From Vicugna vicugna (lineage: Eukaryota), in contig MU058039.1 of the NCBI GenBank assembly GCA_013265495.1, positions 1,180,591 through 1,229,606 on the forward strand: a DNA stretch of 49,016 nucleotides, read 5' to 3'. A program made the translations under genes and the position numbers. Below are positions 15,193 to 46,813 of this stretch, in pieces. The stretch's first letter is position 1. Every line of letters starts with the position of its first letter. Under the pieces are notes generated by a model. The model was not told where the DNA came from. It did not search any database and was given only the letters and a program-made list of their open reading frames with translations.

Positions 15193-15522
<330 letters not shown>

Positions 15523-15525
15523 TGA

Positions 15526-16046
<521 letters not shown>

Positions 16047-16139
16047 GTAGGTGGCACCCACCCACTGGCAGGGCCAGGACAGGGCTGGCAGGCGAGGGGG
16101 CCCCACCCTGACTGCTCCTGCCTGTGTCCCCACCCCAAG

Positions 16140-16274
16140 GTGCAGCAGCTGGTGCCCAAGCGTGATCATGCCCTCCTGGAGGAGCAGAGCAAACAGCAGT
16201 CCAATGAGCACCTCCGCCGCCAGTTCGCCAGCCAGGCCAACATCGTGGGGCCCTGGATCCAGACTAAGATGGAG
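16140..16274 (+). CDS. ACTN4: ACTN4 exon 16 (135 bp)
   Basis: cccaag|GTGCAG...ATGGAG|gtgagg; [45 protein letters not shown]. Confidence 0.96.
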
Positions 16275-17184
16275 GTGAGGGCTTGTCACCCCAGCCCTGC
16301 TGGGCCCAGGAGAATCTCTAAGGGCAGAGCTGAGGAAGAGCAGGAGGCTGCCCCCCACTGGTAGGAGGTCCCTAGTGCTCCCTGGGGCCAGCAGACTTGG
16401 GGGCCTGGTGGATCTGGGTCCCAGCTGTGAGAGCCCAGACCGCCTCGTGGGATTAGGGGGGTTGATAAGATTCTACTAATGGAAATAGCAGCGCCATCCA
16501 GAGGGAAACTTGGCTGAGGAGTCAGGTAGAGGTGGGTTTGAGTTTTGACTCTGCCCTTGACTGATGGTCAGTCACAGTTTAACCTCTGCTCCTCAGTTTT
16601 CTCATCTCTAAAAGGGGATGAAAACAGTTATTCCCGTCCCTCTGCAAATGCTTTAGGACACCGCTCTATGCCAGCCCCATCGTGAGCACTGTAGCTCATG
16701 CTGTAGCTGTGACCAAGGTGGTCTGAGCTCAGGCCCTCCCCAGTGCTCACTAGTTCCCGCGTGACCCAGCTGCAGGGTTTGTAAAGATGCCGATTGCGAT
16801 GCAGGCCACCATTTAATGAGTGCTCGCTATGCACCAGGCACCGTGCTGACCAGAGAAGCCTCATTGAGATTCATGGCAGGGCTGAGACGGTTGGGCAGGT
16901 CAGCCTCATGGCTCAGCGCAGGCTGCACAGGTGGCCACTGTGGGTGGTGAGGCACAGGGTGCTCATGGTCAGGAGCAGGAGTTCTGAAGTTGGCCAGGCC
17001 TGGGTGCCCATCCCGGCCCTGCCTCTTACTGTGGTAAGTTGCCCTTTTTGGGCCTCAGTTTCCATCTGTGCAGAATAGGCATGTCCTAGTCCTGGGCCTC
17101 ACAAGGAGTCAAGTGGGGTGCAGTGAGGTTACAGCTGAGAAGCATTGGCACAGAAACTCTGCATCGTGGCTGCTGTTCCACTAG

Positions 17185-17565
<381 letters not shown>

Positions 17566-17915
17566 TGACGTGAAGTAGCGCAGGCCAGGCCGCCTTATTG
17601 TAAATGGTTTGTGCCTGTAGAAGAGGTGTCGGCTGCCTGCTGTCTTCTCTTTCACTCTAACTGAAAAGACTAGACCAAATGTTTACGTGTTTTTAAAAAA
17701 GTAGTTTCCCTCTTCCAGCAGCAGGATAAGCTCCCAAGGGAGCTGTGAGGGTGGGCAGCGCCTGCTCCCCGTGTGGCCTCAGCAGTTTTGTCCTCACCTG
17801 ACACAGATCCAACCAGCATATGCGGGAGTCCCGAACACCAGCTGAGCGCCACAGGGTTAAAGTGTCAGGGCTGGCTGTCATCACATTGGTAGCCTGAAAT
17901 TGTCCATGGTGATAG

Positions 17916-18770
<855 letters not shown>

Positions 18771-18782
18771 TGAACAGACTAG

Positions 18783-19973
<1,191 letters not shown>

Positions 19974-20134
19974 TGACTCCCTGAGCCGCCCACCTCCTTT
20001 CCTGGAAGTGTCTGGGGAGAGGAGGTCAGGCCTCCGGCTCTCTCCCCTTTTCTTTCTCTTTCTTTCTTTCTTTCCTCCCCACCCTCCAGAGCTAACTTGT
20101 GAGCCCGGGGCTGAGGAGCAGTAAACCTGTTTGA

Positions 20135-20798
<664 letters not shown>

Positions 20799-21482
20799 GC
20801 CCCGACCCAGAGAAACCCTGACCGAACACCCCCTCCTCACAGCCTCCAGGAGGGGCTAGGGGAGTCCTTCTGCCCCTCTCCCCACTGCGAGGGCCTCCTT
20901 GGCCCCGCTCCTCTGACTCTGTATCTATGCAAAGCACTCTCTGTCAGTCCTTTCTGGGGGCGGGGTGGGCAGGGAGGGGCTGGGGCAGGCTCTCTCCTCT
21001 CTCTTTGTCAGTTGGCCAAGAGGATCTCTCCCCCTCCCCCTGGATGGGGGTAAGGGAGACTTCCGGGGTCAGCGCTTCTGGTCTGGTAAATATATATGAT
21101 GTGTTGTTTTGTTCTGTTCTTTTAACTATGTGGAGGGGACAGTGGGTCCCCACAGCAAAACAGGTCCCCTCCAAGCCCTGGGAACACCCCCTCCCCCAGC
21201 CATCCCTCTTCCTTTGCCCCAAAGTCCCTTCAAGGCCTCCCACATCCAGGCCAAAGCCCGACGTGCCTTGTCCAGGAACCGCCAGGCCTATGATGGGCCC
21301 AGCAGAGGGCGCCACAGCTGCCCGGCAGGAAAGAGGACCTACCTGCTCCTGGCTCCCCTCCCCTCATTTGCCATCGCCAGGAGATGAGGGGGTGCAGCTC
21401 AGTCCCCCTCTTTTCTGCAACAGAGGAGTGGGTTTGGGCAGACCAGCCTTTCACCCCCAGCCACCCCCCCCACCTTGCTTTG

Positions 21483-21496
21483 NNNNNNNNNNNNNN
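21483..21496. other. Assembly gap (14 N) in the ACTN4 3' UTR
   Basis: Run of n. Confidence 1.
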
Positions 21497-22416: not shown

Positions 22417-22443
22417 CTAGGAGAAGGTGGCCACCTCCATCCA
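22417..22443 (-). CDS. CAPN12: CAPN12 exon 21 coding part with the normal stop
   Basis: cccag|TGG ATG GAG GTG GCC ACC TTC TCC TAG = WMEVATFS*. Confidence 0.9.
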   Translation of the reverse strand, partial: WMEVATFS

Positions 22444-22521
22444 CTGGGCGGGAAAAGACAGCAGATGTGAGGCAGGGGACTTTCAGACTCCCGAGCCACC
22501 CTCCCTCCAGCCCAGGCTCAC

Positions 22522-22580
22522 CTGTCTGTGGGTCAGGCAGACAACCCCCTCGCCCCCATCCAGGTGCTGGCTGCAGTGGC
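22522..22580 (-). CDS. CAPN12: CAPN12 exon 20 (59 bp)
   Basis: cacag|(R)HCSQHLDGGEGVVCLTHRQ|gtgagc. Confidence 0.9.
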
Positions 22581-22662
22581 CTGTGCAGAGAGGGGCGAGG
22601 TGAGTCCCCCTGCCGTGGAGATGTCCTACCTCTGCCCCACCTGTACCAGGCATGTCACTCAC

Positions 22663-22779
22663 GGAAGATGCAGATGAGCTGGGCCAAACAGGACACAAAA
22701 TGCTCGAAGTCCACACGCAGACGGCTGTCCCGGTAGCGGCTAGTGAGGACCTGGGTCAGCTGGTTGTTCAGGTGGAAGC
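22663..22779 (-). CDS. CAPN12: CAPN12 exon 19 (117 bp)
   Basis: cccag|FHLNNQLTQVLTSRYRDSRLRVDFEHFVSCLAQLICIF|gtgagt. Confidence 0.9.
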
Positions 22780-22887
22780 CTGGGGGAGGCCACCTCTGAG
22801 CCTGGGCTGCCCCCCTGAACCCCGCCTCAGTGTTTCACCCCACTCCGACTCCCCAGGGAAGACACACCATGGGAGTCTGGTCCCACC

Positions 22888-23080
22888 TCTCAAATCCCAG
22901 CTCTGCCTCACCCCAGCTATGTGGCCAGGGGCAGCTCCCTTCTCTTCTCTGGGCCTCAGTTTCCTCATCTGTCAAGTGGGAACTTTGACAGCCCTAATCC
23001 CATAAGATTGTGTGAAGAAGTTACACATAGAGAGTTTAGGACAGTGTCTGACACAGACTAACTATGCCAGTGTTATTATT
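22888..23080 (+). mobile_element. MIR SINE
   Basis: tcaaatcccagctctgcc...ctctgggcctcagtttcctcatctgtcaagtggg. Confidence 0.75.
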
Positions 23081-24189
23081 CCTTTAAACTCTGCAGAATT
23101 TCTGCTAATGGACACTGGAGAACGTTTCTGTGCAGCAAAGCATTTTGGTCAGTCCCATATGGAGTTAGTTTCTCCCTGCTCCACACCAGGGCTGACGTTT
23201 AAAGTTTAGAAATCATCTGATGAGGAATCTCAACTTTTAAAAGCTAAAAGCAGTGATTCCCCTCCCAGGTCACAGATAACCCTTCCAGACCCCAGGTTGC
23301 AGGGTGACTCTCCTCTGTCCCCACATGTCCACATAAACACAGTTCTAAGGGTAATTTCATGGGCTCTCACCCCCTCAAGCCCATCTTTACCCCCTATTCT
23401 GTGCACCAGTCATTTTAACAAGTAGTTGTCAGGTGCTGTCACACACTGTGCCTTACTCTAGGTGCCGCTGAGCAGTTGGCCCAAGGGACTGTGGCCTCAG
23501 CCTGGCAGTGTGCCCTCCAAGAGGTCACACCCCTTCTGGCATTTATGTTTCCTCAGGAATTAAGGGGAGGTGGTGCTGTGCCCAGGGCTGTGGGAGGCCC
23601 TGGCCAGCGGAAGCAGAAGGACCTGAGAAGGGGCCAGGAGCCCCTCAGCTGCCCGCTCTGGCATTCCTCTCCTTCCATGGGAGGTGTCCGCTTCCTTTGA
23701 CTGCTCCCAGACGCTCCCATGTCCTGTGCTGCCTGGTACGGGGGCCTTTCCGGGGCCCCCAGTTCTTATGAAACCTGTTACCTAGTCTACTGGGCCCTAG
23801 TGACCATGACCTGGTTACCCATCCCCAGGGCCCCCATTGTCCCTGGCCACCTGGTGGCCCTCACAGGCTGCACATCATCTGCCCCACTCTGTCCCCACCT
23901 CCACCTGTCCTTGGGCACCATCTTGCCTCCTTTGCACTGGATGTGCCCTCTGCCCAGAACACCTCGTCCCCTCTTGGTCTGGAGTATTGCTGCTCCAGTG
24001 CGCCCCTCCGTCAGGAAGTCCTCTCAGACACTGAACCCCAGCGAGCAGCAGCAAGCTCCTCCTCAGGCCTCCCTGCCGTGCCCGGACCCCTCTGAGCTGT
24101 CACTGTCATCGGTGACTCTGGCTGCCCCTGGACTGGGCAGGGAGGTGCGACTTGCGAGGTCAGGGAAGGGCTTCTGGTCACCCCTAAAT

Positions 24190-24785
24190 GCCCACCATCA
24201 GCCAGTACAGGGCCAGGAGCAGAGCGGGTGCTGAGGGAGTGTTTGTGGAGCAGAGAATAGGGCTGGATTTAAAGAGCTTCTCACAAGGCCTCAGGGGACT
24301 CTCCTGTCTTCCCTCCCCAACCTTTCCTCTGACCACCTTCCAGTGACCACTTGGCTCCAGCCACAGCAGCCCCCTGTACTCATCTCCATCAGTGGGCCCC
24401 TCGTTCACGCCACTCCCTCCACACCAGCCTCCTCGGGGCACATGTTCACACCTCAGGGTCTTTGCACTGACTTTCCTTCTGTCTAGACTGCTCTTCCCCG
24501 GTGTCCTCCAGGCTCACTCCCCCTCCTTCAAGTCTCTGCTGGAACTTCACCTCAGTGAGGCCTTCCCTGACTGCCCTGTCGTCACCCGCACCCCACCCAC
24601 TGTGTGTCCCAGCACCGTGGCCTGCTTCCTTTTTCCACCATAGCATTTATCACCGCCTGACCTAGACATTCTCCTTCTTGGTTGTGTGTCTGCACCACCA
24701 GAACATCAGCTCCTTGAGTCCACTTTTCTTCTGCCTAGAATAACACCAGGCCTGTCCCAGGCACTCGGTAACACTGAGTGAACAG
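24190..24785 (+). mobile_element. LINE-2 3' fragment in CAPN12 intron 18
   Basis: ctcagggtctttgcactgac...cacctcagtgaggccttccctgac...catagcatttatcacc are L2 hallmarks. Confidence 0.7.
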
Positions 24786-25728
24786 TACAAACCTTCCATC
24801 TTCCCCCCATCCTCTCTCCCCTCCGTTTCTGATCACCTGGGACTCCATTTCTAAGGGTCACATCTCCCAATCTTCTCTCTCTGACTCCATCTCCCCCTTC
24901 TATCTTGAGTTCCTTTCTTGTCTTGTACCTCCTTGGACCTTTGACCTCCCTCCACTAGGGTCTCCCTTGCCGCTCAGACTCCGGATCACAATCACCCCCA
25001 GCCCGTCTCCCCACATCTCACCCTTCCTGTTGCTGTAGCAGATGAGCCCTGGGGTCGGGTAGGGGTCTGGGAGTTCTGTGTCTCATCCCAGCCACTCCCC
25101 AACCCTCCACACAAGGTCGGGTAGGGGACAGATCACACAGGCACTTCTCTAACTTACTTCAGAGCCCAGGAAAGTCGCTCTCTGGCTCTGCTCCTTGGCT
25201 AGGATCTTGTGCTCGCACACAAATGGAATGGGAGGTTCTACGTCTCCCGGAAGAACAGCCTTTCAGCAGGAGCCTCCCTTCATATTCTCTGACGCGTGGT
25301 AACCGAGGCTGCATTCCCAAGCACTAGGCCCTGTGGGCTCCATTCCACAAGCTCCTCTTACAGAGAGGGAAATGGAGGCTCCAGGTGGTGGACTTACGTG
25401 CCCAGGGCCACCCAAGGAGTCCAGGAGTCCCAGATGTTCTAACATGAGGCCCTGGGGGCCAGGGCTTCTCAGACAGCAGCTTCCGAGCCCCTCCTCTCTC
25501 CTCCCCCCAGGAAGGCCCCCCTCCCCTCAGTGACATCCCGGGCCCATGCTCCTCTTACGGCCCCTCTCCCCTGGGGATTCTCCCCACGTGGCCTCTTTCA
25601 GGGTCACCCAGTCCCTGCCAAGAGCTGGCAGCAAACTAAGGTGCGGGCTTTGTGGCTGGTAGGGTAGGAGTAAGGGGTAGGATGGGGAGCAGGCCCATCC
25701 CCCAGATCCCAAGGACCTCTGTCCATAC

Positions 25729-25807
25729 CTGCCGCATTCAGCGCCAGCCTCAGCTCATAGGAGTTCATGGTTCCAGAGGCATCCTCATCAAACTTGTCAA
25801 ATGCAGC
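25729..25807 (-). CDS. CAPN12: CAPN12 exon 18 (79 bp, EF-hand)
   Basis: tccag|AAFDKFDEDASGTMNSYELRLALNAA(G)|gtatgg. Confidence 0.9.
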
Positions 25808-26419
25808 CTGGACAGGGAGGTACTGGTCAGCCTCCCAGCCCCTGAAGGAGGCCGAAAGGGGGCCCTGGAGCCAGACAGCCTGGGCTTCCACCCCAGCTCC
25901 CTTTCTTCCTCGCTGCTTGTCCCATGCAAGCAGCTTAACCACTTTGGGCCTCCTTCCCAGTCTGTAAAGTGGGAGGAATGGTAACAGCAGTAACCAGGTT
26001 GTGGTGAGGACAGGCTGATTCTACCCACAAAGGGCCTAGTGAGGGCTCAGCAAACAGTAGCTTATCACTTCTAGTGTAGGGGGGCCTGGGACCCACAGAG
26101 GTGGGAATTAGTGTCTCCTATTGGTAGACAAGCAAAGCCCCCTCATAGGACAGCTGACTTGCCTGAGGTCACACAGCCAGAAAGGTTAAGCTAGAAGCTA
26201 GGATTCCAACCCAGGACGAGTCTGCTCTTCATCCCTGAGCTATTTATCCCCCCTGGACCTGGAGGGACAACGAAACGGTGGACAAGGCAGGGACATCCCA
26301 GCCAGATCCCTCCAAGTTGGTTGGTGTGGTGTGGTGTGGTCCAGTCCCCCCTTCACCTCTGGGGCCCGCTAGCCCTCTCCGTCCAGGAGGAGGTGGCCCT
26401 CCCCAGCTCCCCACCTTAC

Positions 26420-26482
26420 CTGCCACTCCAGGAGGTGGCCCCAGAGCTGCTGGAAGTGGTGCAGGGCCAGGCTTCGCCCATG
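26420..26482 (-). CDS. CAPN12: CAPN12 exon 17 (63 bp)
   Basis: cccag|HGRSLALHHFQQLWGHLLEWQ|gtaagg. Confidence 0.88.
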
Positions 26483-26583
26483 CTGGGAATGCGGCATCTG
26501 GTTAAGGTTAATATTCCCAGAACAGAAGCAGAGTTCCCCACATCCCCATCCTCCCTTACCCAGGCACGGCCCCCATCATATAC

Positions 26584-26654
26584 CCCAAAACACTGTAGCA
26601 GCTGCTCACAGGTCCTGAGCCCGATTTCTCTGGGGTTCCGAGCATGGGTCCTGG
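26584..26654 (-). CDS. CAPN12: CAPN12 exon 16 (71 bp)
   Basis: ctatag|(A)RTHARNPREIGLRTCEQLLQCFG|gtatat. Confidence 0.88.
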
Positions 26655-26689
26655 CTATAGGAAAAAAGCAAAACAGTAGCACTTCCTGC

Positions 26690-26850
26690 ATATGGGCCAT
26701 GACTGTAAGTGCCAGGGATTATTGTTATCCCCACTTTATAGAAACTGAGGTGCAGAGAGCCATGTGACTGCTGGCAACTAGCAGAGCTGAGGTTTGAACC
26801 CAGGCAGCGGGGGTCTCAGTCTGTGCTCACGGCAGCTACACTCCCTGCCT
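26690..26850 (-). mobile_element. MIR SINE
   Basis: ttatccccactttatagaaactgaggtgcagagag...ggtttgaacccaggcag. Confidence 0.7.
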
Positions 26851-27032
26851 CTCCCTTAGAGGAAGGGGCACTTTAGTGGCCATGGCCTTGGCCCACAGGT
26901 CCTGCCACAGGACCCACATTTGGGGAGATGCCACCAGGCTGAGCCCAGGGTTCCCATGACCTGACTGTAGCAGCATCATGGATGAACACACATGGGGGGT
27001 TCCATGGGGTCAGCTCTTGGTCCCCAACTCAC

Positions 27033-27090
27033 CAGGCTCCAGGACAATGCTTAATAAGGTCTGGAGCTGAGGGGCACTGAGTTCTTCCTC
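27033..27090 (-). CDS. CAPN12: CAPN12 exon 15 (58 bp)
   Basis: gccag|EEELSAPQLQTLLSIVLEP|gtgagt. Confidence 0.88.
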
Positions 27091-27607
27091 CTGGCAAGGA
27101 GAGAGCCAGTTGTGAGGCTGTTCACTCAGGCAGCCATTCAACAAACAGCCTGGGGCAGCCCAGAGAGCATGCTGGGCATTGCTGGAGACACAGCAAAGAC
27201 AGAGAGCCACAGGCCTGCCCTCTCAGAGCTCGCGATTGAGGGAGGGAGAGAGACCTGTCCTCAGAGTGATCAGGGCTGCAATGGAGAAGCAGTGGGCTAT
27301 GGGAGACACCCAGGGAAAGCAGCTGGCCAGCCTGGGGAGGGTCTGGGAGAGCTTCCAGAGGAGGGCACATTGGAAAGATGAGGTCTTAGCCCCACAGGGG
27401 TTGTGAAGAGAGAGAAAGCAGTCAAGGCTTAGGGTACAGACTGAGCAAAGGCGTTGAGGCAGAGAAGGGCTGAGAGCACTTTGAGAAAAAGTCAGGAGAT
27501 TTAAGCACAGAAACTAAAGCAAAATGAGATGTTGAGGATGAAAGAGGGGGACAAGGGGAGGGAGGTGGAAGGGAGGGGACCCGCTTTGTCCTGCCCAGCT
27601 TCCTCAC

Positions 27608-27667
27608 CTCTCCTGCCAGCTCCAGGAACAGCTGCTCCAATCCCAGCTCCAGGGGAATGTAGGGGAC
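27608..27667 (-). CDS. CAPN12: CAPN12 exon 14 (60 bp)
   Basis: cacag|VPYIPLELGLEQLFLELAGE|gtgagg. Confidence 0.88.
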
Positions 27668-27756
27668 CTGTGGGGTGGGGGGAGTTTAGTTCTGGCCAAG
27701 AAGATTCCCTCCCACACACCATCCTCCCCACCCCTCCCTCCGCAGCAGCCCCTCAC

Positions 27757-27799
27757 CATGAGGGCATGCATGTCGGCGCTGATCACGTCATCAATCTCC
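27757..27799 (-). CDS. CAPN12: CAPN12 exon 13 (43 bp; downstream of the premature stop)
   Basis: ttgcag|G EIDDVISADMHALM|gtgagg. Confidence 0.88.
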
Positions 27800-27910
27800 C
27801 TGCAAATTACAGATGAGAGATGGGGGAGGGGGCTGCTCACCCCGCTGCTGGGGATATGGCGTGTGCGGGTCTCAGCTAAGACTCAAGGTGGGTTTTGAGG
27901 GGACCCTCAG

Positions 27911-28117
27911 CTAGGTGTGGAGCCGCTCAGAGAAGATGCGCAGCGTGAAGTCGGCCTCGTCGCCTGTGTGGGCCGCGCTGGGCACCACCAGGTAGTGGCC
28001 CGGGCGCAGGCGGCAGCGGCAGCTCACGTCGCGGCGGGCGCAGAAGCGCGAGCGGTCGGCGCGCAGCAGGCTTGGCAAGAGTGCCCGACTGCGCGGGGAG
28101 TCCCACAGGTCCAGCAG
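27911..28117 (-). CDS. CAPN12: CAPN12 exon 12, ending in an in-frame TAG at 27911-27913
   Basis: cccag|LLDLWDSPRSRALLPSLLRADRSRFCARRDVSCRCRLRPGHYLVVPSAAHTGDEADFTLRIFSERLHT*; sequence reads CAC ACC TAG CTGAGG with no GT at the expected phase-2 donor. Confidence 0.9.
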   Translation of the reverse strand: MLDLWDSPRSRALLPSLLRADRSRFCARRDVSCRCRLRPGHYLVVPSAAHTGDEADFTLRIFSERLHT

Positions 28118-28312
28118 CTGGGGTCAAGGCAGCATCACCATGACCGCCCAAGTTCACCCCACGTGGCCTCCAACCCACCACATCCTCCAGACCACCCTGT
28201 CCAAACCCACTCATCACTCATCACTCCAAGTGCCCCCAAGGCCCCCAGGTTGTCTGAGCCCCTGGGGCTTATTCAGTGATGGATGAAGTCTGGGGTCCCA
28301 TATGAGACCCAC

Positions 28313-28324
28313 CTCCTCTGGGAT
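28313..28324 (-). CDS. CAPN12: CAPN12 exon 11, 12-bp microexon (IPEE)
   Basis: tttccttcttacag|ATCCCAGAGGAG|gtgggt; supplies the FQ-IPEE-LL segment of calpain-12. Confidence 0.9.
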
Positions 28325-28802
28325 CTGTAAGAAGGAAAAGCAAGGGGAATCAGGGCCAAGGGGAGGTGGCCACCCTTCAGAGTCCCCTAGGCACCCCTCC
28401 CTCTCTTTTCTTCCCATCCCATCCCTCATTAAGCCCCTTCCCCTCAGTCCTTGACCCAGCCCCTCCTGGACCCTCACTCCCAACTGTGCCCTCAGGTGCC
28501 TTCTCTGTTCCTCCATCCCTTCCCTGATCCTCAGCCCCTAGCCATTTCTCTGACTCCTTCCTGACCCTTCCCCCCTGCCCTTCTGACCACCAGTCTCTCT
28601 CTGTGCCCACCCCTAGCCCCTCAGTCTCTCCTTGACCCCTCCCTCCCATTTCCTCAGCTGTGTCCTATCTCTGACCCCTGGCCCCCATCTTCTACCCCCT
28701 CAACCTCCCCATCCCCTCCTTGCCCCTGGGGATCCCACCTTGGCTCAGGGACCCTCCATGCCTCTCTGTTCCCTATTGCCTCTGCTCAGCCCAGGGTCCC
28801 AC

Positions 28803-29038
28803 CTGGAACACGTGGAATCCCACTGTGAGGTAAGTGAGGCCCTGGGCCCTCAGTCGCCGCCGGTTGCGCTGGATGAGTGACAGGAGCACAGTGCACTTAG
28901 GGATGCGGCCCCCCCGTGCAGGGCCTCGTGCCCCCACTGCCCCCCAGCCCCCATAGGGCCCCTCATCATCATCCTCCTCCTCCTCCTCATCAGGCTCCAG
29001 CAGCGTTAGCCGGAACTGGGGGTTGGTCCAGAAAGTTT
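28803..29038 (-). CDS. CAPN12: CAPN12 exon 10 (236 bp)
   Basis: attag|(E)TFWTNPQFRLTLLEPDEEEEEDDDEG...LTVGFHVFQ|gtggga. Confidence 0.95.
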
Positions 29039-29123
29039 CTAATAGAGGAGAAAGATCGAGGGTTACCCAGCCTGCCACAGTCCCCCTTGCTTGCCTTCAG
29101 GGCCCCCTCCAGGCCTCACCTAC

Positions 29124-29287
29124 CGGCACCAGGCTGGCTCCCGCCAGAGTTGAAGCCGCGCACCCAGCGGCCTTGGAAGGTGTGAACATGCCAGCCGCCT
29201 CCAGTCGGGCTGGGGCCCAGCACCTCAGGGCTCAGCGAGCAGACCTGGACGGTGTCGAAGTGTTGGAGGAAGTCCTGCAGTTCCATC
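29124..29287 (-). CDS. CAPN12: CAPN12 exon 9 (164 bp)
   Basis: tccag|MELQDFLQHFDTVQVCSLSPEVLGPSPTGGGWHVHTFQGRWVRGFNSGGSQPGA|gtaggt. Confidence 0.94.
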
Positions 29288-29952
29288 CTGGACAGTGGCA
29301 GGCAGTCAGACCCTGCCCCAGCCCCTGCCTCCCCAGGGCCCCAAATATCTCAAGTTTCCCAAATATCTCAAGACCCCAGAAGCGAATCTCCATCACAAAG
29401 CTCCCTAAATTCCTTAAATGTTGCCAAATACACTTCAGTTCCCCCAAATAATACCATGTCTCCAGAAATGACCCCCAAACTAGAGCTCTCTGGCTCCCCC
29501 AGATTTCCCCAAGTCCTCAGAAATGCCCCACATATAGCCGAGATCCACAAACTTCCTCCAAATACGGACAAATTGCCTTTAACCTCCAAATATTAAGACC
29601 CTCAGACTCTATCACCAACAAGTATCCTTCAGCCCCTCAGTATTGCCGTGCCTCAAGAAATGCCCCAGATGTCACCAAGCCTCCTCCAGTTACCCTAAAT
29701 TTTTCCCACCTCCTTCAACCCTCCAAAGATGACTATGCTTCCAAATCTCCCTAATATTACTACTGATTCTTCCTCGACTTCCCCAGATAGAACCTGACCT
29801 CCAAATTACCATGGATATGGGCAGTTCCTCCCTGTTAGAACCCATCCCCGTGAACCTCTCCCATGTCCCTTCAAGCAGGACTCATCCCGCTCCCTAACCC
29901 CACTGGCCTAGCGCCCTTTTCAGAGGCAGGCCTAGGAAGCTGCCCCACTCAC

Positions 29953-30027
29953 CAGAACTCGCCATCCTCCTTTTTCACCAGCAAGGCATCTCGCCACTCC
30001 GTGGGGAGTGCATCCCAGCGTGGGCAG
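29953..30027 (-). CDS. CAPN12: CAPN12 exon 8 (75 bp)
   Basis: cccag|[24 protein letters not shown](W)|gtgagt. Confidence 0.95.
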
Positions 30028-30096
30028 CTGGGGAGACTGGGTGTCAGGGGTCGGTGGGTGTGGCTAAGCCTCCCCCCTCCCCCAGATCCATCCCAC

Positions 30097-30182
30097 CTGT
30101 CGCTCCAGGCCCCGGTCCACTCCACACTGCCCCACGGGTTCCGCAGCCGCAGAAGCCGCACCTTGGTGAAGCCCAGTGACAC
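30097..30182 (-). CDS. CAPN12: CAPN12 exon 7 (86 bp, catalytic Asn)
   Basis: attag|[28 protein letters not shown](S)|gtggga. Confidence 0.95.
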
Positions 30183-30255
30183 CTAATGGAGGCGTGGTCA
30201 GTGGGGAGTGGCTGCTTGGACACCTCCTGCCAGCCCACCCCTGGGGGATCCTCAC

Positions 30256-30330
30256 CTTGTGTGTGCCGGTGACTGAATATGCATGTCCCTTCACCAGCCC
30301 ATCTTCAGTACGGTACTCACCACGATCACT
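30256..30330 (-). CDS. CAPN12: CAPN12 exon 6 (75 bp, catalytic His)
   Basis: cccag|SDRGEYRTEDGLVKGHAYSVTGTHK|gtgagg. Confidence 0.95.
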
Positions 30331-31115
30331 CTGGGCAGAGGATAGGGGACAGTGAGCCATATTGGGGGACAGGAGGGTGGCTGCTCCTCTCTGCATCCCC
30401 ACCTCCTGTCACCACAGCTAGAAGTCACCCAGAGCACCTAACTGAATGGCACGGGGCTCTGACAGGTTGTGGGAGTTGGCGAGAGAAGGAGAGAGAAGGA
30501 AAGAGGCAGATGAAGACAAGAGACCAAAATAGATTTAAAAAGGAGAGAAACAGAGACACAGGGACAAACATACAGAACAGACAGGGAAAGAGACAGAGAA
30601 ACACAAAAGACAAAGACAGTCAGTAACTGAGTAGAGGATTAAGTAAATGAATAAATGAGTTAGACAGACTCAGTGAATAAATGAGTATGTGGTTGGGTCA
30701 CAGATGAACATATGACCCAGACTAAGCCCATGAAAATCAATCCGGGGACTTTTGCTGAAATTTTTAGAAAGAGGCACTTTTTTTTTTACACACCTCCCCC
30801 AGGGTGGTAGGAGGATCCCACAGCTGTGGGGGCCATTTTTGTGTCCATGAGGGGAAAGCCTGCCTGTAAGTGAAGCTAACCTAGAACGAGGAATAGAAAA
30901 ACACATTCACAACATCCACTATGCACCTGGATCCAGCTGTGCCTGAAGCTTATTAGTTTTGAGAGCAAATAAAGGTTCTTTTGACTTGCTCGTGTTTGAT
31001 TTGTGAGCGAGAATAAGCCAACAGTGAAAGCAGAGAGAAGGACCCAGGGCACCAGCCCCTCCCGCCGTGACTGTGCTCCGGTCCTGGTGGGGGTCTCCGC
31101 GGGAGTTTCTCTCAC

Positions 31116-31284
31116 CAGTGCAGTGGCGCCCACAAGGGACTCCTTGGCCAAGGCATGGCGCAGGGCAGAGAAGAGGCCTGGGGTGCCTTGCCTCAGGTAG
31201 AGCACCTCACCCACACCGCCTGTGAAGTCCACGAAAGCCTCATTCATGTGGCCGCCTCGCATCACCTCATAGGATCCGTGGAGC
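31116..31284 (-). CDS. CAPN12: CAPN12 exon 5 (169 bp)
   Basis: cacag|LHGSYEVMRGGHMNEAFVDFTGGVGEVLYLRQGTPGLFSALRHALAKESLVGATAL|gtgaga. Confidence 0.95.
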
Positions 31285-32012
31285 CTGTGGGAGCAGGTTC
31301 GGGGTGGGGTGTCTGAGGCATGTGGGTGTATCTCGGGCAACCCTTGAGATGTGGGGGGCCTTTGTCCACAAATTTCCCCATGGTCTATCCCGAATTTCTA
31401 CACTCTTGAGGTGTGCACACTCTGGAAGCCCTTGGAAATCGAGCTGGCGGCTCCTGGGGCCACTGGGACTGCATGATTTGGGGGTCACAGGAAACCTCTG
31501 TCAGAATTCTGGGCTTCGTAGGGGCTGAGTCTGACACTGAGTCTCTGGGAGATGTCTGCTTTGGGGGTGATCCCGATGGGGCTTGTCAGGGATTTCAGAG
31601 CTGCAGGATTGGGGGAAGCCAAGCTGTGAGAGTCCTGGGGATTACATCCAATATTCGGAGGTGCCTTAGGTTTCTTGATGGAGAGATTGTCTGAGATTAC
31701 AGGTTCCCTAGCGAGGGGTCAATCTTAGACTTGGTGACTCTGGGGCCTGATACATGAGATCTCAGTCTCCTTCAGAAATACGGGTATTTGGTAGGGCTCT
31801 AGGAGGATTTTGTGTAAATGCTGATAGAGGGAAGGGTTTCTGACTTGGAGGTCCTCAGGCGATGGTGTGACATTAGGGTCCTGGGTGCCATGCCTTGGTT
31901 GGAGATCTTTGGTGGGGTGTCTGGAGGATCCCAGAAGCCAGGGGGCTCTGAGGGTCCCCTGTGGCCAGCTGGCTGCAACTTGGGTTGGCACTGGGGGGTT
32001 TGGGGTCCTTAC

Positions 32013-32146
32013 TTGGCATAGGCCTTCTCCAGGAGTGGGGCCCAGAACTCGTTCCGCTGAGCTGAGCGCACGAACACCAGCTTCCCCTCACGCACAGGCA
32101 GCCTGTCATCCACCACGACGTCCACCCAGTGGCCAAACTGCCAGAG
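32013..32146 (-). CDS. CAPN12: CAPN12 exon 4 (134 bp)
   Basis: accag|[44 protein letters not shown](K)|gtaagg. Confidence 0.95.
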
Positions 32147-32320
32147 CTGGTGGGAGAAGGGGTGGGGCCGGGCTCAGCTTCTCCTGACCTCCGACCCTGC
32201 CTGTGACCCTGACCCTGCTGTACCAGCCCAAGAATTACAGCCCCAAGGAGACAGTGTCAACTGTGCAACCCGTGTCACCATGGGGGAAACCGAGGCTTGA
32301 ACAGAGGAACTATGCTTTAC

Positions 32321-32439
32321 CTGGAAATGGAAGATACCTGCATAGCCACCTTGGAAACCCTGTCCTGGGGGGACCACCCGGCACAGGAGTCGGGGGTACA
32401 GAGTGAGGGAGGCAGCGGCGGCAAGAAACCAGCAGTTAC
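32321..32439 (-). CDS. CAPN12: CAPN12 exon 3 (119 bp, catalytic Cys)
   Basis: cccag|(G)[39 protein letters not shown]|gtaaag. Confidence 0.95.
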
Positions 32440-32644
32440 CTGGGAGGAAGAGCTAGGATGGGTGAGGATGGAAAGTGGGAGACAGAGGTGCGAGGAGAGA
32501 ACAGAGTGAGAGGGAGACAGAGGCAGGGACGGGGATAGATTGAGGGGCTGGGGGCGGGGCAGAGCGAGGCTGAGGGCAGGGCTGTCAGGGTCCCAGCTGC
32601 AACTTGCCGGACCCATGGGCTCAGCGTGGGTTCAGTGGTCTCAC

Positions 32645-32714
32645 CCAGGCTCCCCTGACACACGTCTGTCCGGCTCATGTCCTCACAGATGAACTGGGGC
32701 TCAGCACAAAACTC
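32645..32714 (-). CDS. CAPN12: CAPN12 exon 2 (70 bp)
   Basis: tcctag|EFCAEPQFICEDMSRTDVCQGSL(G)|gtgaga. Confidence 0.94.
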
Positions 32715-32934
32715 CTAGGAGTGATGGGGGATTCCAGGCCTCAGCCAGGAAGGGGAGGGAAGAAGCAACTGGGAGGTCAGATGCCTGGGTCCCCTTCTGC
32801 CTTCAGTGCTCCGGAGTAATGAGTGCCTCCAACCCCAGAAGAGGCTTGTAAAGCCTATGGACAGGTGTTTGGCCTCCCTGGTCCTCCCCTGACCCAGGAT
32901 GGCTGAGCCTGCTCTGAGTCAGTCCCACAGAGAC

Positions 32935-33072
32935 CTTTCCTCCCTCAGACCCAGGAGTCGGAACTCCCAGACCTTCCTCCTCAGATCCAAGCCTCCAGCC
33001 CCTTCCTCCCTCAGACCCGGGAGCCCAGCCCCCCAACCACATCCTCCCTCAGACCCAGGAGCCCAGCCCCCA
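32935..33072 (+). repeat. MSR1-like minisatellite (about 4 degenerate units) in CAPN12 intron 1
   Basis: Repeated core TCCTCCCTCAGACCC(A/G)GGAG(T/C)C, matching my recollection of the MSR1 unit. Confidence 0.75.
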
Positions 33073-33084
33073 TCCACACATTAC

Positions 33085-33321
33085 ATGCGGCCTCTTCCAT
33101 TCCACCCCTTTGGCCTTCTTCGAGTTCGGTCCCAGCTGGTTATAGCCAAGAGAATCAGGGCCAGCAGGGAAGTAGGGATCTTGGAACAGGATTCCCTCAT
33201 CCAGGCAGGCTGCTCGGATTGCATTGTAGTTCTGGCCCCGAAAAAGCTTCGGGCCCCTGGTCCCAGGCCCTGCCTCCTCATTCACCAGCTGAATGGTGAC
33301 CCTCCTGCTTCCACACGCCAT
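33085..33321 (-). CDS. CAPN12: CAPN12 exon 1 coding (237 bp)
   Basis: MACGSRRVTIQLVNEEAG...LFQDPYFPAGPDSLGYNQLGPNSKKAKGVEWKRPH|gtaatg. Confidence 0.93.
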
Positions 33322-35325: not shown

Positions 35326-36986
35326 GTTCTGACTACCTTCTGCAACCCCATCCACGTCACTTATCACCTCTGGCTCTGGCTGCTGTCTCTGCCATTTCCA
35401 CGGTCACTTCCACTATCTGTGCTCCACATTCTCAACCCGCAGGGTCACAGCCCTCTCCCCTTTATTGGCCCCCAAAGCACCACTAACTGTAGGAGAAAGC
35501 TTTTAGTAAAACCTGGCTGACATCTTGCAATGATGTGAAAACCCTGTCCCATCCGCCGGCCTCCTTCCTGCCCCTTCCCAGCCCCTCCTGCAGGCCCCTC
35601 CTGGCTGCTGCTCCTCCTGGCTCTCATCTGGCTGCCACACTGCAGGGTTCTGCTCACATCCCACAGTCAAGAGTTCTCTGGATTATCATTCCCCAGATCT
35701 CCCCCTTCTCCTTGCATCCAGGGTCCCAAATACTCTTTCCCCAGCCAAGGTAAGAAAAACACATGGATGTCACTATAGTGGATGTATGTTGCTTTGTGAG
35801 CCCAGCACCCCCTACTGCTCTCTGGAGTCAGTATCCCCCTTATGTTTTGGGGACCCCACAAATAAGGGACTTATTCTCAGGTCACAAGTCTCTCTAAGGG
35901 CTGGCCCCTCCCACCAGCTCCAGAGAAGGGCATGTGACCTAGACCAGCCAATCAGAGCAGGGCAGCCCAGGCCACGCCCCTAGCCTCACCTCTGTGCAGA
36001 TAGTAAGGGCGGGGATTCTCTCGCCCTGGGGCCACTAGGCTGGCAGGATGTAAGCCCCGAGTGGCCCCGGGCTCTACCTTGGCTGCGTCTCCCGGAGACC
36101 CTGCCTGAGGAAGGGCGTTGCTGAGCGAAGCAGAGCTAGGCATGGGCAGAGAGAAAAGATTCCCCCACATGATACCTGGAATGTGATATAAAGGGACACT
36201 TCCTCTTATTTGCTGCTTAGTTGCCGTGAGGCACAGTTCATAAAAGAAAGACCAGGTACTTCCTTGATTCTTTCTCTTTATTTACCACTTTTCAGAGCAA
36301 CACTAGTTTATTAAATATCTGTATATGGGTCAGAATTCCTTTTGAGAGCTTTCACTGTAACAGATCACCTAGTAGTGAGGTTGTGTTGGGGAAAGGCTTT
36401 CCTTCAATACTTGGCAGCTACTGTTGCCTGTCCAAAAGAGTTGATACCTGAGGCAAGGCGTCTGTATCCCAGTACCATCCAGTCATTAGCATGGACCACC
36501 ACCTGGGAGGGTCCTAATGATGGGTGAGACAGTTCCCTGCGACAGAGGGCACTTCCCAGTGAGGAACACAGCTGTGAGATGCCAGGAGCCCAAAGTCCTA
36601 GCACATCCTAGGTCTGTCCACTGAGAGAGGCTGTCTGGGGAGCTTTTCTGCAAATTTGTGGTTATTTTAAAAGCAGAACAAATGCTATCTAAAAATGACT
36701 GAAATGGTTATTAAAAATGATTCTGCAGGCAAAGCTGGTCTTTGTCGTCTCCATGCTGCTTGGGTGGCCTCATAGAGGCCCCACATGCTGGGGCAGTGGG
36801 ATCAAAGAATAAAAATAAAACTCTCAATTGTATCAACAGAAAGTGAAATGAGTTACTGGGAAGAAAAAATAACTATATTATCTTCATATTACTTGTGGAG
36901 AGTTAACAGCTAACATTGAATTCTTGACATTGATAATTAAGTAACCCTAGGTTCAAGTATGAGCTTAAAAAAAATCTATCATTAGT

Positions 36987-37116
36987 GGGGCGAGTAAGGC
37001 TCAGTGGTAGAGCATGTGCTAGCATGCACAGGTCCTGGGTTCAATCCCCAGCCCACCGTTAAAAATAAATAAACCTAGTAAATAAATAAATAAATGAACC
37101 TAATTACCCTCCCCCC
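36987..37116 (+). mobile_element. tRNA-derived SINE (camelid Vic-1-like)
   Basis: A box GCTCAGTGGTAGAGC, B box GGTTCAATCCC, tail aaataaataaa-cctaattaccctcccc; flanking aaatctatc repeat. Confidence 0.8.
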
Positions 37117-37351
37117 CAAATCTATCTCTAATCATGAATAGAGTAAGAACAAATCAATAGGACAGCTTAAAAAGAAAAAAGAAGAAAAGCTAATCCATTT
37201 GGCAAAGGCCAAAAAACAAAGGGAAAATGCAGGGACTCATAAAAATGAAAACAGAAAGTATGAGAAAATGACCAAAGTAAAGCCAAACACAATAGTTTTA
37301 ACACTATTTAGCAAATGTGTGAAACTTGCGAGTAAGTAAAAAAAGAACTAA

Positions 37352-37470
37352 CTGTAGTGATGTTTGCACAACCCAGTAAGTATACAACAAAACGTTGAAC
37401 TGTACACTTTAAATGGGTGAATTGTATGGTATGCAAACTATATCTCAACAAAGCTGTTATTTTTTAAAAT
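37352..37470 (+). mobile_element. L1M 3'-end fragment
   Basis: ttgaactgtacactttaaatgggtgaattgtatggtatgcaaactatatctcaacaaagctgtt. Confidence 0.75.
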
Positions 37471-37779
37471 CCAATGGCATTGGGGTTTGGGGAAAAGAAG
37501 GAAAGTTGAAACATTCATTCTAAAGTGTCTCTGAAGGAAAACTTACTATTTAGGACTTACCTACTAAATAGTTAACATGTCTTATGAAACTGAAATAAAT
37601 AATGTTACAGTAACACAAAAATAGAACAATGGGAAAAAAAGAGTCTAGAAATATACCTATCACATGTTAAAATTTGATGTATAATTGAGATGTCAATTCA
37701 CATCTCAAGGTGACAAAGCAACCAACAAATTGGTCATTTAACACTTAGAAAAAAGATATAGCAACTCTACTCTACTGGG

Positions 37780-37884
37780 CTTGTTTTCTTTTTTCTTTTT
37801 TCACTTAATGGAGGTTCTGGGGATTGAACCCAGGATCTTGTACATGCTAGGCATGTGCTGTACCACTGAGCTATACCCACCCCC
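37780..37884 (-). mobile_element. tRNA-derived SINE (Vic-1-like)
   Basis: ctggggattgaacccagg...taccactgagctatacc; flanked by approximate TSD aaaagatatagcaactcta / aaaagtatatcaactcta. Confidence 0.82.
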
Positions 37885-38002
37885 TCAAAAGTATATCAAC
37901 TCTAGATGGACTAAAGAATAACATTTGAAAGTTACAAAGAAACTAAAATGTCTTACCTCAAAGTTTAAAAGAATTATATAAGCATAATAACAATGTGGAG
38001 GT

Positions 38003-38135
38003 GGGGAGGGCATAGTTCAAGTGGTAGAGCATATGTTTAGGATACACAAGGTCCTGGGTTCGATCCCCAGTACCTCCTCCAAAAATAAATAAATAAGCAA
38101 ACCTAATTACCCCCCCAAATAATAATAATAAAAAA
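38003..38135 (+). mobile_element. tRNA-derived SINE (Vic-1-like)
   Basis: ggggagggcatagttcaagtggtagagc...gtcctgggttcgatccccagtacctcc...aaataaataa...cctaattaccccc. Confidence 0.85.
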
Positions 38136-38476
38136 GCAACATATGGAATTGCAAGGGAAAATCAGTAAATCTGATTATGTAAAAATCAAAAGCTTCTACA
38201 CATCAGAAAAGCATTGAAATAATGTTTAAACTCAAGACACAATAGGAAATGAGGAAATATGTACATCATACTTGTGATATATGTGACAGAAAAGAGTTTA
38301 GTGTCCTTCATTAATAAAGAGTTCTGACAAATAAATACTCAAAATTATACAATAATAAAATGAACATATACAAAAGCAATGAATTGATCAAAATGTGAAA
38401 AAAAACACATAATAAGAAAACTCAAAATAAAATGACAGTGACATATTTTTGGCTACAATATTCAAAATTAATGAGT

Positions 38477-39061
38477 GTGTTAATCAGGGTTCCCCAGGGA
38501 AACAGAATCTCTCTCTATTCCTATCCCTATCCCTATGTCTATGTCTATCTCTACCTATATCTATATAGAGAGATTTATTATAGCAATTGGCCTACACTAT
38601 TATAGAGATTGACAAGTCCTACAATCTACTATCTGCAAGTTGGAGACCCAGGACCTAGGATATAACTCAGTCTGAGTCTGAAGGCCTGAGAAGCAGGGCA
38701 GCAGACAGTGAAACTCCCAGTCTAAGACTGAAGGCCTAGAAACATAGGGTAGGGGGATGGTGCTGGTGTAAGTCCCAAGAACTAGAAACTCAGATGTCAA
38801 AGGGCAGGAGAAGATGGATGTCCCAGCTCAAGAAGAGAGAGAAAGAGAACTTCCCCCTTCCTTTGACTATTTGTTCTATTCAAGCCCTCAAAGGATTGGA
38901 TGATGTCCACATTGGTGAGGGTGGGTCTTTTTCACACTGTCTGCCGATTCAAATGCTAATCTCTTTTAGAACATCCTCACAGTCACACCCAGAAATTATG
39001 TCTTACCAGCTATCTGGGCATCCCTTAGTCCAGTTAAGTTGACACAAAATTAACTATCACA
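38477..39061. mobile_element. MLT2-type (ERVL) solo LTR
   Basis: Begins tgtgttaatcagggttccccagggaaacagaa, has gagatttattatagcaattggc, ends ccagttaagttgacacaaaattaactatcaca (TG...CA). Confidence 0.8.
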
Positions 39062-39087
39062 ACATAGTTTGCCAACTCCTCTTTCAC

Positions 39088-39267
39088 ATGACTGCAACTC
39101 CACTGACGGTTTGACTATAACTTCATGAGAAATCTTGAGCCACAACCACCCAGGTAAGCCAGCCCCAGACTCCTAACTTCAGAAACTGGGTACGATAATA
39201 AATACTTGTTGTTTCATGGTGCTAAGTTTGAGAGTAAGTTGTTATGCAGCAATACATAACTAATACA
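39088..39267 (+). mobile_element. MLT1-type (MaLR) LTR 3' fragment
   Basis: cttcagaaactgggtacgataataaatacttgttgttt...gctaagtttgagagtaagttgttatgcagcaatacataactaataca. Confidence 0.8.
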
Positions 39268-42200
39268 TTGTCAGACTGGATAAAAAAGCAAGATCCAACT
39301 ACATGCTGTCTACAAAAGACACAATCTAGATCTAAAGAGACAAATAAGTTGAAAGTAAAATGTTGGGAAAATATACATATTGCAAACAGTAACTATAAGA
39401 GAGTTTGAAGGACAACATTTATATCAGACACAATAGATGTTAAAAGAAATTTTACTAGAGACGAAGAGGGACATTTAACATTAAAATGGTCAATACATCA
39501 GATGTATATAGAAAGTATAAAAGTGTACTATAATAGAGCCCCCAAATACATGACAGAATGAAAGGATAAACAATAATTTTAGTTGTAGATGTCAATACCC
39601 CTCTTTCAGCAATTGACAGAACAACCAACATAAATGATTAAGGATGTAGAAGACATAAATACTGTTAATCAGTTTAACCTAATGCTTAACACTCCACCTT
39701 AGCAAAAGCAGAATATACTTTCCTTTCAAGCACACTTGGAAAATTTTGCAGAGTAGACAGACCATTTGCAAGGCCATAACATAAGTCTCAATAACTTTAC
39801 ACAAATTGAAATCATACAAAGTATGTTCTCCAACCATAATGGAATTAAGGTAGGACTCAATCCATAAAAAGAATTCTAGGAGTCTCTAAATATGTGGAAA
39901 TTAAACAGCACCCTTCTAGATGACCTATGTGTCACAGAAAAAATCAAAAGAGAATTAGGTAATACCTTGAGCTGAATAAAAGCAAAATCACAACATAACA
40001 AAATGTAACATGTAGCTACAGTAGTACACAGAGGGAAATTTATAACTTTAAATACTTATTAGAACAGAAGAAAGACCTAAAATAAATCCAAACTTCAACC
40101 TCAAAAACTAGAAAAAGAAGAGTAAATCAAAATCAAAGTGAATAGAAAGAAATGCTAAAGATCAGAGTAAATCAATGAAATAGAAAACATAAAAGCAATA
40201 GATAAAATCAGTGAACCCAAAAGGTGGCTCTTTAGAAAAATCAACAAAATTAATAAACTTTAGCTAGACTGAACAAGAAATAAAAAAGAAAAAAATAACC
40301 AAAATCAAGAACAAAGGAAAGAACACGACTAACAACCCTATAGAAATTTAAAAAAAAATTATATGGGAACATTATGAATAGCTTTAGGACAACAAATTAG
40401 GCAACTTAGATGAAATGGACATATTCCCAGAAAGGGACAAATTACCAAAACTGACTCAAAAAGAAACTGGAAATATGAATAGACCTATAGCAAATATGAA
40501 AACTGAATAAGTAATTTAAAAATATCTCCACAAAGAAGAGCCAAGGCCCAGATGGTTTCTCTGGTAAATTCTATCAAATATTAAAGGAAAAATAATACAA
40601 ATTTTCAGAAATACTGAAATTTCTGAATTTCAGAAATACTGAGGCAGGCAGAACACTTCCCAAATCATTTTGTGAGGTGGCTATTACCCTAATACCAAAA
40701 CCAAACAAATGTATCAAAAGAAAAGAAAACTACAGATCAATATCTCTCATGAACATAGATGTAAAAATCCTTAAAATACTAGGAAATTGAATCTATTCTA
40801 TACATAAAAATTATTATATGAAGTGAGATTTATACCAGGAATGCAAGGTTGGTTTAACAGCAGAAAATCAAATCATTTCATAAAAACAAAATGACATGAA
40901 AATTTCAACAGACACAGAAGAAGCACTTAACAAAATCCAACACCCATTTATGATAAAAGAAAAGAAAAGCAAAGCTATCAACACACTAGCAATAGAAAGG
41001 AATGTCTTCAATGAGATAAAGGGCATCTGCAGAAAACCTACAGCCAATTATCATACTTCATGGTGAAAAGTTAAATGCTTTCCCACTAACACTGGTTATA
41101 AGGCAAAGATGTCTTTCTACCACATTCATTCAGCATAGTACTGGAGGGTCTAACCAGTGCAATCAGACAAGTGAAAGAAATGAAAGGCATAAAGACTGGA
41201 AAGCAAGAGATAAATATGTTTTTATTAACACAGGTCATGATTATGTACCTTAGAGATTTTTTAAGGAATTTACAGAAAAAGCTGTACGAACCTAGCAAGG
41301 TTGCAGGCTATAACATTGATAAACAAAAAAACAAAACAAACAAATAAAAAACAAAACAGCAGTATTTTCATGGCAGCAATAAACTGGAAATTGAAATTTG
41401 AAAACAATGCCACTTACAAAAGCATCCAAAAACATATAAGCTTAGATATAATTTAATAAAATGCTTACAAGACCTCTACAGTGAAACCTATGAAACACTG
41501 ATGAAAGAATTTCAAAGATGTAAGTAAAGGGATTGATAAACCATATTCATAGATGAGAAGATTAATATTGTTAAGATGTCAGTTCTTCTCAAATTGATTT
41601 ATGCAATCAAAATCCCAAGAGACTTTTTTTGTAAAAATGCTGATGAAATTTTTAAATGTATATGAAAACAAAAAAGACCTACAATAACCAAAATAATTTT
41701 GAAAAGAGGAACAAAATTGCAAGACTTACACTCTGTGATTTTAAGACTTACTGTAAAGCTACAGTAATCAGGAGTATCATATTGGCCTAAAGATAGACAG
41801 AAAGACCAATGAGTCAGAAGGCTGAAGGCCAGAAATGAACTCTGGTCACAGATATGGTCAATTAATTTTGGACAAAATTGCCAAGGTAACTCAATGGGAA
41901 AAAAGGCAGTCTTTTCAACAAATGGTGTTGAAACAGCTGGAAGTCCACATGGTAAGAAATGAACCTCAACCCTTACATCATACCATACAAAAATAACTAA
42001 ATAATGGATCATATACCTAAGCATAAATGCTAACACTATAAAACAGCTAGAAGGAAACATTTCTAAAAATTGTGACTGTAGATAGGGAAATATTTCTTAA
42101 ATAGGACACAAAGGCACAAACTATAACAGAAAACAATGATAGTGTAGAATTCAATTAAACACTTCTGCTCTAAGAAAGACAATTAAAAAATGAAAAGAGA

Positions 42201-43092: not shown

Positions 43093-43539
43093 CAAGCTGT
43101 GGAATCATATTCACCTGGCTCTGGTCCCTGCTCTACCACCTACATGATGTGTGACCTTGAACATACATCAGATGCCTCATTTGCAAAATAAGAACAATAA
43201 GAGTCTCTACCTCAGAGGATCGTTTTAAAGATTGAAAGAATGATTAGCACAATGACTAACATACAGCAGAGACTCAGGAAATGTTACCTAAATAGGTATA
43301 TAAATAAATACTCCAATTTTCCTCAACAAGTACACTGTAGATAAATTATTATAGAAAAATGACTAGGAAAAATCACACTAATATACCAAGAGTGATAATT
43401 TCAGAGTGATAAAATTGTACATGATTTAAAAATTCTTGTTCAAAACCACACAGTAAGTATGCATATGTTTTATAATCAGAACAGAGTTTATTTAAAAAAA
43501 AGGTAGAAATCTATCAACATCTTAAAAATACTATGTAAA

Positions 43540-46611: not shown

Positions 46612-46813
46612 CTTGAAGCCCTCTTCGGTGGCGATGAGGAGCACGTCGAAGGGCTGCCCACGCTGGAAGGGAATGCCCGAGCCCCGCTCCTCTTGGCCCC
46701 AGGCGCCGCGCTCCAGGGTGTTGAAGACCACGGTGGACTCATCCAGCCGAGGATTGAAATGCAGGGCGGCCTCACCGCCCGGCTCCTCACTGCACAGCAG
46801 GTTTACATAGAAC
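46612..46813 (-). CDS. LGALS7: LGALS7 exon 3 (202 bp)
   Basis: taccag|FYVNLLCSEEPGGEAALHFNPRLDESTVVFNTLERGAWGQEERGSGIPFQRGQPFDVLLIATEEGFK|gtgcgt. Confidence 0.96.

Follow-up and report, generated by a model that had tools for sequence, protein, structure and literature searches.

The window, the whole stretch of 49,016 nucleotides analysed here, carries the gene CAPN12, encoding calpain-12, on the minus strand. Its coding region (22417..33321) comprises 21 coding exons and runs from an ATG at 33321 to a normal TAG stop at 22419–22417. The plus strand carries, at 15200–20800, the 3'-terminal exons of an alpha-actinin gene, with matches to Spectrin repeat (below the cut-off), EF-hand_1 and the Ca2+-insensitive EF hand (PF08726, E 4.9e-19); all exons seen are open, and an alpha-actinin-type C-terminus near 20795 places this gene tail to tail with CAPN12 (stop at 22417). 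Upstream of CAPN12, a galectin exon (46462–47016, minus strand) matches Gal-bind_lectin (PF00337, E 1.3e-22). We take the human order to be ACTN4–CAPN12–LGALS7; the alpha-actinin gene is presumably ACTN4, and the galectin exon is consistent with an LGALS7-like neighbour. Orthology to CAPN12 is indicated both by the best matches, which are named calpain-12, and by the conserved neighbours. An AT-rich block at 36000–44000 (GC 0.31–0.40, versus 0.55–0.62 elsewhere) holds two ORFs, of 100 and 165 aa, with no Pfam match, and may be an interspersed-repeat insertion. The only run of N in the window (14 N, 21483–21496) lies in the spacer between the 3' ends of the two genes, between C-rich and long A-rich low-complexity stretches and 6 kb from the lesion described below; a gap sized at 14 N suggests a scaffolded draft assembly.

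The exon chain of CAPN12 was built by a tblastn search of alpaca calpain-12 (P0004) against the window and then a brute-force test of which splice joins give back that protein. The spliced translation equals P0004 at 719 of 720 residues, the sole mismatch being residue 528, a stop in the window versus alanine in alpaca. Nineteen of the 20 introns are GT–AG, the exception being intron 12. Exons 1–11 sum to 1377 nt, or 459 codons, and include as exon 11 a micro-exon of 12 nt (28313..28324) that encodes IPEE and has GT–AG introns on both flanks. Exon 12 (27909..28117; 209 nt, 72% GC) opens in phase 0 and encodes the end of the Calpain_III/CBSW domain and a linker. It is followed by intron 12 (27800..27908; 109 nt), which has a normal acceptor (tgtaatttgcag/G, the slash marking the splice boundary), and by exon 13 (27757..27799; 43 nt), which opens at 27799 with a single leftover base (G + GAG ATT GAT GAC) that completes a split Leu codon before the frame continues as EIDDVISADMHALM. 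Exons 13–21 (22417..27799) encode the linker and the penta-EF-hand (PEF) domain (residues ~553–719), with open frames and exclusively GT–AG splice sites. The 15 nt upstream of exon 17 (26483–26497, minus strand) read in frame as MPHSQ within an ORF at 26369–26575; alpaca isoform X1 (725 aa) has these residues and X2 (720 aa) lacks them, so the window contains an alternative acceptor.

The single defect of the gene lies where exon 12 meets intron 12. Read on the minus strand, the exon ends ...CGC ATC TTC TCT GAG CGG CTC CAC ACC TAG CTGAGGGTCCCC (after the TAG, the same stretch is also given as CTGAGGGTCC), and its translation from 28117 reads LLDLWDSPRS...FTLRIFSERLHT followed by the stop. The in-frame TAG (27911..27913) is codon 69 of exon 12 and codon 528 of the gene, a position occupied by Ala in the alpaca and camel proteins, and the predicted product is therefore 527 aa long. 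The exon then closes as ...CAC ACC TAG CT, and the intron opens with GA: at 27907..27908, the expected donor dinucleotide of intron 12, GA stands instead of GT. The join 27909/27799 is the sole one between exons 12 and 13 that reproduces P0004, and the brute-force join search found no GT/GC/AT–AG/AC option for intron 12 that reproduces the protein. A donor matrix, derived from the other 19 donors of CAPN12 and applied to every GT and GC site of exon 12 and intron 12, gives the native donor at 27909 a score of -0.9, against 2.6 to 11.4 for the 19 others. Rebuilding the exon chain revealed no further stop, frameshift or splice defect in CAPN12 beyond this junction.

Domain positions were assigned on P0004, which is the same as the window's exons apart from residue 528. 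Peptidase_C2 (PF00648) spans residues 46–339 (E 1.7e-119), Calpain_III/CBSW (PF01067) spans residues 359–521 and ends 7 residues before the TAG, an EF-hand lies at 625–654, and residues 553–719 match the PEF chains of the calpain small subunit and CAPN3. The catalytic triad is present (Cys105, His259 and Asn283). The PEF domain that a classical calpain carries at its C-terminus is encoded intact by exons 13–21 but is cut off in this assembly by the TAG and the GA donor. The TAG sits in the linker after CBSW, and a stable product would consist of the protease core and CBSW without PEF. The TAG lies nine exons upstream of the last junction; under the 50–55-nt rule, a spliced CAPN12 mRNA bearing it would be a target of nonsense-mediated decay.

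Much of this had been anticipated by a sequence-only reading of the same DNA. The TAG at codon 69 and the loss of a phase-2 donor at about 27909 reappeared when the minus strand was re-read and the exon chain rebuilt, and the 527-aa product that it had predicted agrees with the 459 codons of exons 1–11, which put the TAG at codon 528. Its exon numbering and phase, and its open frames and GT/AG sites elsewhere, are those of the 21-exon model, in which no second defect was found; the intact Cys/His/Asn triad and the loss of PEF were likewise recovered, with the triad located at C105/H259/N283 and the TAG preceding the PEF exons. The human sequence that it had given for the junction, RVFSERRHTAVEIDD, occurs in three of the four human CAPN12 entries checked, the fourth being without that stretch.

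Among the GT and GC sites of exon 12 and intron 12, there is no strong in-frame cryptic donor that avoids the TAG. The sites at 27989 (score 6.2) and 28028 (score 5.1) are in phase 0 and out of frame with exon 13, and the site at 27841 (score 6.2) lies downstream of the TAG. The only phase-2 GT upstream of the TAG is at 28107 (exon side 28105..28107, minus strand; CCT/GTGGGA; score 4.6), and splicing there would cost the CBSW domain 66 codons. Judged by these scores and phases, no credible in-frame splice bypass of the TAG is available. These results bear on the idea of a functional product made despite the TAG, whether as a PEF-less calpain-12, by stop-codon readthrough or through a non-canonical splice. 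Such a truncated form would retain Peptidase_C2, Calpain_III and Cys105/His259/Asn283, and the calpain table of PMC9648470 includes non-classical calpains with no PEF in their domain lists. However, the PEF exons are intact and conserved, which would be unexpected if they were unused; no GT, GC or AT donor lies in frame at or before the TAG, save the one that costs 66 CBSW codons; and readthrough alone would lead into an intron without a donor. We consider a functional product of this kind extremely improbable.

A search with the exon 12 protein as query returned at least 120 matches at E<=0.001 (129 counted among 315 candidates). Among the matches listed, those with 100% identity over exon 12 are four camelid calpain-12 proteins: P0001 from dromedary, P0002 and P0004 (alpaca isoforms X1 and X2, respectively) and P0003 from wild Bactrian camel, the last flagged LOW QUALITY. 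These matches identify the gene as CAPN12 and its bearer as a camelid, in line with the camelid origin that the sequence-only reading had considered. All four read HTALEIDD at the junction (SERLHTALEIDD), while pig reads HTAM, yak and cattle (P0092) HTAVEVDD, and hippopotamus HTAVEIDD. The junction pattern is found in 187 of 199 collected proteins, and the residue at the TAG position is Ala in 182 and Val in 5 of these 187; as far as these proteins indicate, the recurrence of Ala across relatives is more than chance. The genomic ORFs of other mammals read ...HTAV and then stop, an ending that fits an ancestral ...GCN GT/GTGA donor. The camelid Leu is made of CT and the G of exon 13, which means that exon 12 has the same end point in the alpaca annotation as in the window. 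Predicted from the proteins, an intact camelid allele must read GCN CT and then a donor. Relative to that allele, TAG CT GA would require at least two substitutions in codon 528, together with a T-to-A change at donor position +2 or a 2-base loss. The changes needed all fall within 7–10 nt, and the adjoining 2.1 kb of coding sequence is perfect.

The camelid signature is confined to P0001–P0004 among the 199 proteins, and the listed exon 12 matches include CAPN12 of alpaca and Camelus, with none from llama, guanaco or vicuna. A protein search with the sense ORF gave 21 matches among 22 candidates (best identity 89%), none of them camelid; the ten related clusters hold 96 members, and camelid contig ORFs were not found among the 69 members listed. 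The antisense ORF (27917–28276) gave 4 matches among 49 candidates (best identity 76%), with no camelid contig ORF. Metagenome contigs yielded two loci at 33–50% identity that are not orthologues, and an exact 27-mer had 0 matches in prokaryote genome contigs. The four camelid proteins place an intact junction in the same or a sister species; the lesion is specific to this assembly.

The sequence-only reading had proposed a calpain-12 lacking its PEF domain or a recent gene loss. At the level of the species, neither is supported, with alpaca X1 and X2, dromedary and wild Bactrian camel all reading Ala-Leu at the junction. It had named as evidence against itself another assembly with a sense codon and a GT donor; the sense codon is found, at the protein level, in alpaca, and the GT donor is deduced. 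Its hedge of a young lesion, a segregating allele or a consensus error stands. The alpaca entries have a real residue at 528 rather than X and bear no LOW QUALITY flag, and their source assembly holds a 77.9-Mb contig. Under NCBI practice, an unflagged alpaca entry with a real residue presumably reflects a sense codon in the source assembly.

Comparison of the two sides of the TAG speaks to the age of the lesion. Between the lamoid protein and the two Camelus proteins there are 8 differences in the 527 residues before the TAG and 1–2 in the 183 after it; relative to pig, yak and hippopotamus, divergence is equal on the two sides, at 9.9–12.3% upstream and 9.3–15.3% downstream. This residue comparison with Camelus, pig, yak and hippopotamus revealed no relaxed constraint in the PEF exons. 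A contrast of exons 1–12 with exons 13–21 had been suggested by the earlier reading, and run here on residue differences it gives no excess downstream; because exons 13–21 are no more diverged than exons 1–12, the lesion, if biological, would be very young. A fixed loss of CAPN12 in the species sequenced, which could be a lamoid distinct from the reference alpaca, would be compatible with the listed CAPN12 proteins, which among camelids cover alpaca and Camelus only. It fits poorly, however, with a lone lesion in a gene that is identical to alpaca at 719 of 720 residues and has every other splice site intact, with the lack of excess divergence downstream, where an older loss would be expected to gather changes, and with an intact sister taxon. 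Of the features that mark a unitary pseudogene, the coding lesion is present; the lesion is not common to other assemblies or to the clade, and neither further lesions nor relaxed constraint was found. We regard a fixed loss as very unlikely, and even when it is pooled with a functional PEF-less form, the combined probability stays small.

Turning to the possible origin of the lesion, the 8-mer CTCAGCTA on the plus strand (TAGCTGAG on the gene strand) at 27906..27913 spans the TAG and the broken donor, and a second copy of CTCAGCTA, a possible template for the lesion, lies 35 nt away in intron 12 (27871..27878). Over both strands of the 49-kb window, TAGCTGAG occurs twice, against 1.89 expected, and 59 of 100 shuffles give at least two copies; two copies are unremarkable as a number, but their closeness is unusual. 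By rough estimate, the chance of a same-strand second copy within 50 nt is ~0.002, or perhaps 0.01–0.05 when the choice of word and offset is allowed for. The arrangement suggests that the lesion may have arisen by copying of the nearby motif, either as a templated clustered mutation in the germ line or during local assembly or gap filling; a templated germ-line mutation accounts for it no less well than an artefact does. A tandem duplication of a 35-nt unit was rejected, the two units sharing only the 8-mer. A second short direct repeat, CGGGCGCAG (9 nt; 28001–28009 and 28035–28043, 34 nt apart), lies inside the GC-rich exon 12 and is probably a composition effect.

A real and very young loss-of-function allele, private or segregating and perhaps produced by one templated event with TAGCTGAG, 35 nt downstream, as its source, is a serious possibility to which we give somewhat less than even weight. 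The lesion is present in the assembly, and one complex event would explain both the stop and the loss of the donor, with the 8-mer occurring exactly twice in the window, 35 nt apart. The downstream exons are intact and undiverged, as in a very young allele, and strong in-frame rescue is lacking among the cryptic donors, the best of which are out of frame or past the TAG, while 28107 drops 66 codons. Transcripts of such an allele would retain intron 12 or use cryptic donors; they would undergo nonsense-mediated decay, the TAG lying >50 nt upstream of later junctions, or else yield the 527-aa PEF-less protein. Loss-of-function variants of CAPN12 are probably tolerated in people. Against a real allele stand the intact junction in the reference alpaca and both camels, and base rates, which favour an artefact for a lone lesion in one draft assembly: apparent disruptions affect a few percent of genes in draft assemblies, whereas real loss-of-function alleles affect less than about 1% of genes per haploid genome.

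C1298, the contig that carries the window, belongs to a different assembly from that of the alpaca entries, with 12,405 contigs totalling 2.03 Gb, in which the region is present as a single copy with no alternative haplotig. Sequencing runs contain the interval 26400–29300, or part of it, in 20 of 24 cases: the 14 DNA runs (5 studies, two organism labels) contain 0.95 of the words sampled from it, a measure too coarse for one site, and six RNA-like runs (X15–X20) contain 0.05–0.15 of the sampled words, which is not expression evidence.

We favour, at slightly better than even confidence, an assembly or gap-fill artefact as the source of the CAPN12 lesion. This lean derives mainly from the base rates of disruption in draft assemblies, the intact conspecific reference and the location of the lesion, on the border of a 72%-GC exon. 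Counting against it, base-calling errors do not typically replace several clustered bases, and the 8-mer has an exact copy 35 nt away. We propose that, in a lamoid camelid that is either alpaca or an animal very closely related to it, an otherwise intact and constrained CAPN12 may have received a short replacement of ~7–10 nt at the exon 12/intron 12 boundary, which would have converted the Ala-528 codon to TAG and removed the GT donor. The replacement would be a mistake of local consensus calling or gap filling, made at the 3' end of the 72%-GC exon in a scaffolded draft; the animal itself would make a normal 720/725-aa calpain-12. We infer, then, that the difference between the window and the intact junction of its relatives was introduced during assembly rather than in the germ line.

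According to a calpain review (PMC9648470), which cites Dear et al. 2000 and Bochner et al. 2017, calpain-12 is hair-follicle restricted, with a link to congenital ichthyosis; in moose selection scans, CAPN12 figures among skin and horn genes (PMC10582009). The literature search found no paper pairing CAPN12 with alpaca, and the titles and abstract openings of the papers found contained no report of CAPN12 gene loss. If real, the lesion would amount to a natural CAPN12 knockout or PEF-less truncation in a fibre-producing camelid, the first natural calpain-12 null outside the human ichthyosis cases; it would offer a natural model for calpain-12 in skin and fibre, and breeding stock could usefully be genotyped for it. 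Should the lesion be an assembly error, this assembly is unsuited to calling CAPN12 lost, and the case illustrates how a lesion in one draft can mimic gene loss while the conspecific reference is intact.

Several known systems resemble the lesion in part. Disruptions in draft assemblies, annotated by NCBI as LOW QUALITY PROTEIN, likewise present a single frame-breaking lesion in a gene that is otherwise perfect and that a better assembly, from the same species or a sister species, shows intact; among the CAPN12 matches listed, this flag is carried by Camelus ferus P0003, Mirounga leonina P0071 and Megaptera P0120. Whereas the usual LOW QUALITY case is a single-base indel, the putative artefact in the window replaces several clustered bases with a copy of an 8-mer close by. 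In this respect it resembles short template-switch or templated clustered mutations, in which several changes within a few nucleotides can likewise be explained by copying of nearby sequence. The template-switch events of Loytynoja and Goldman (2017) reportedly copy, for the most part, inverted nearby sequence. Unlike most such events, the copies in the window are direct, and they extend over only 8 nt.

To our knowledge, the human ichthyosis variants of CAPN12 do not lie at the exon 12/13 junction. Those variants, as reported in congenital ichthyosis by Bochner et al. 2017, affect the same gene; the camelid lesion was read in an assembly sequence. The predicted 527-aa product also resembles the non-classical calpains (CAPN5, CAPN6 and others), which in the domain lists of PMC9648470 likewise combine a protease core and CBSW with no PEF. 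Genes of the CAPN5/CAPN6 type, however, end naturally and have no PEF exons, whereas the CAPN12 of the window has nine intact PEF-side exons past the stop; the PEF-less architecture of its 527-aa product would be accident, not design.
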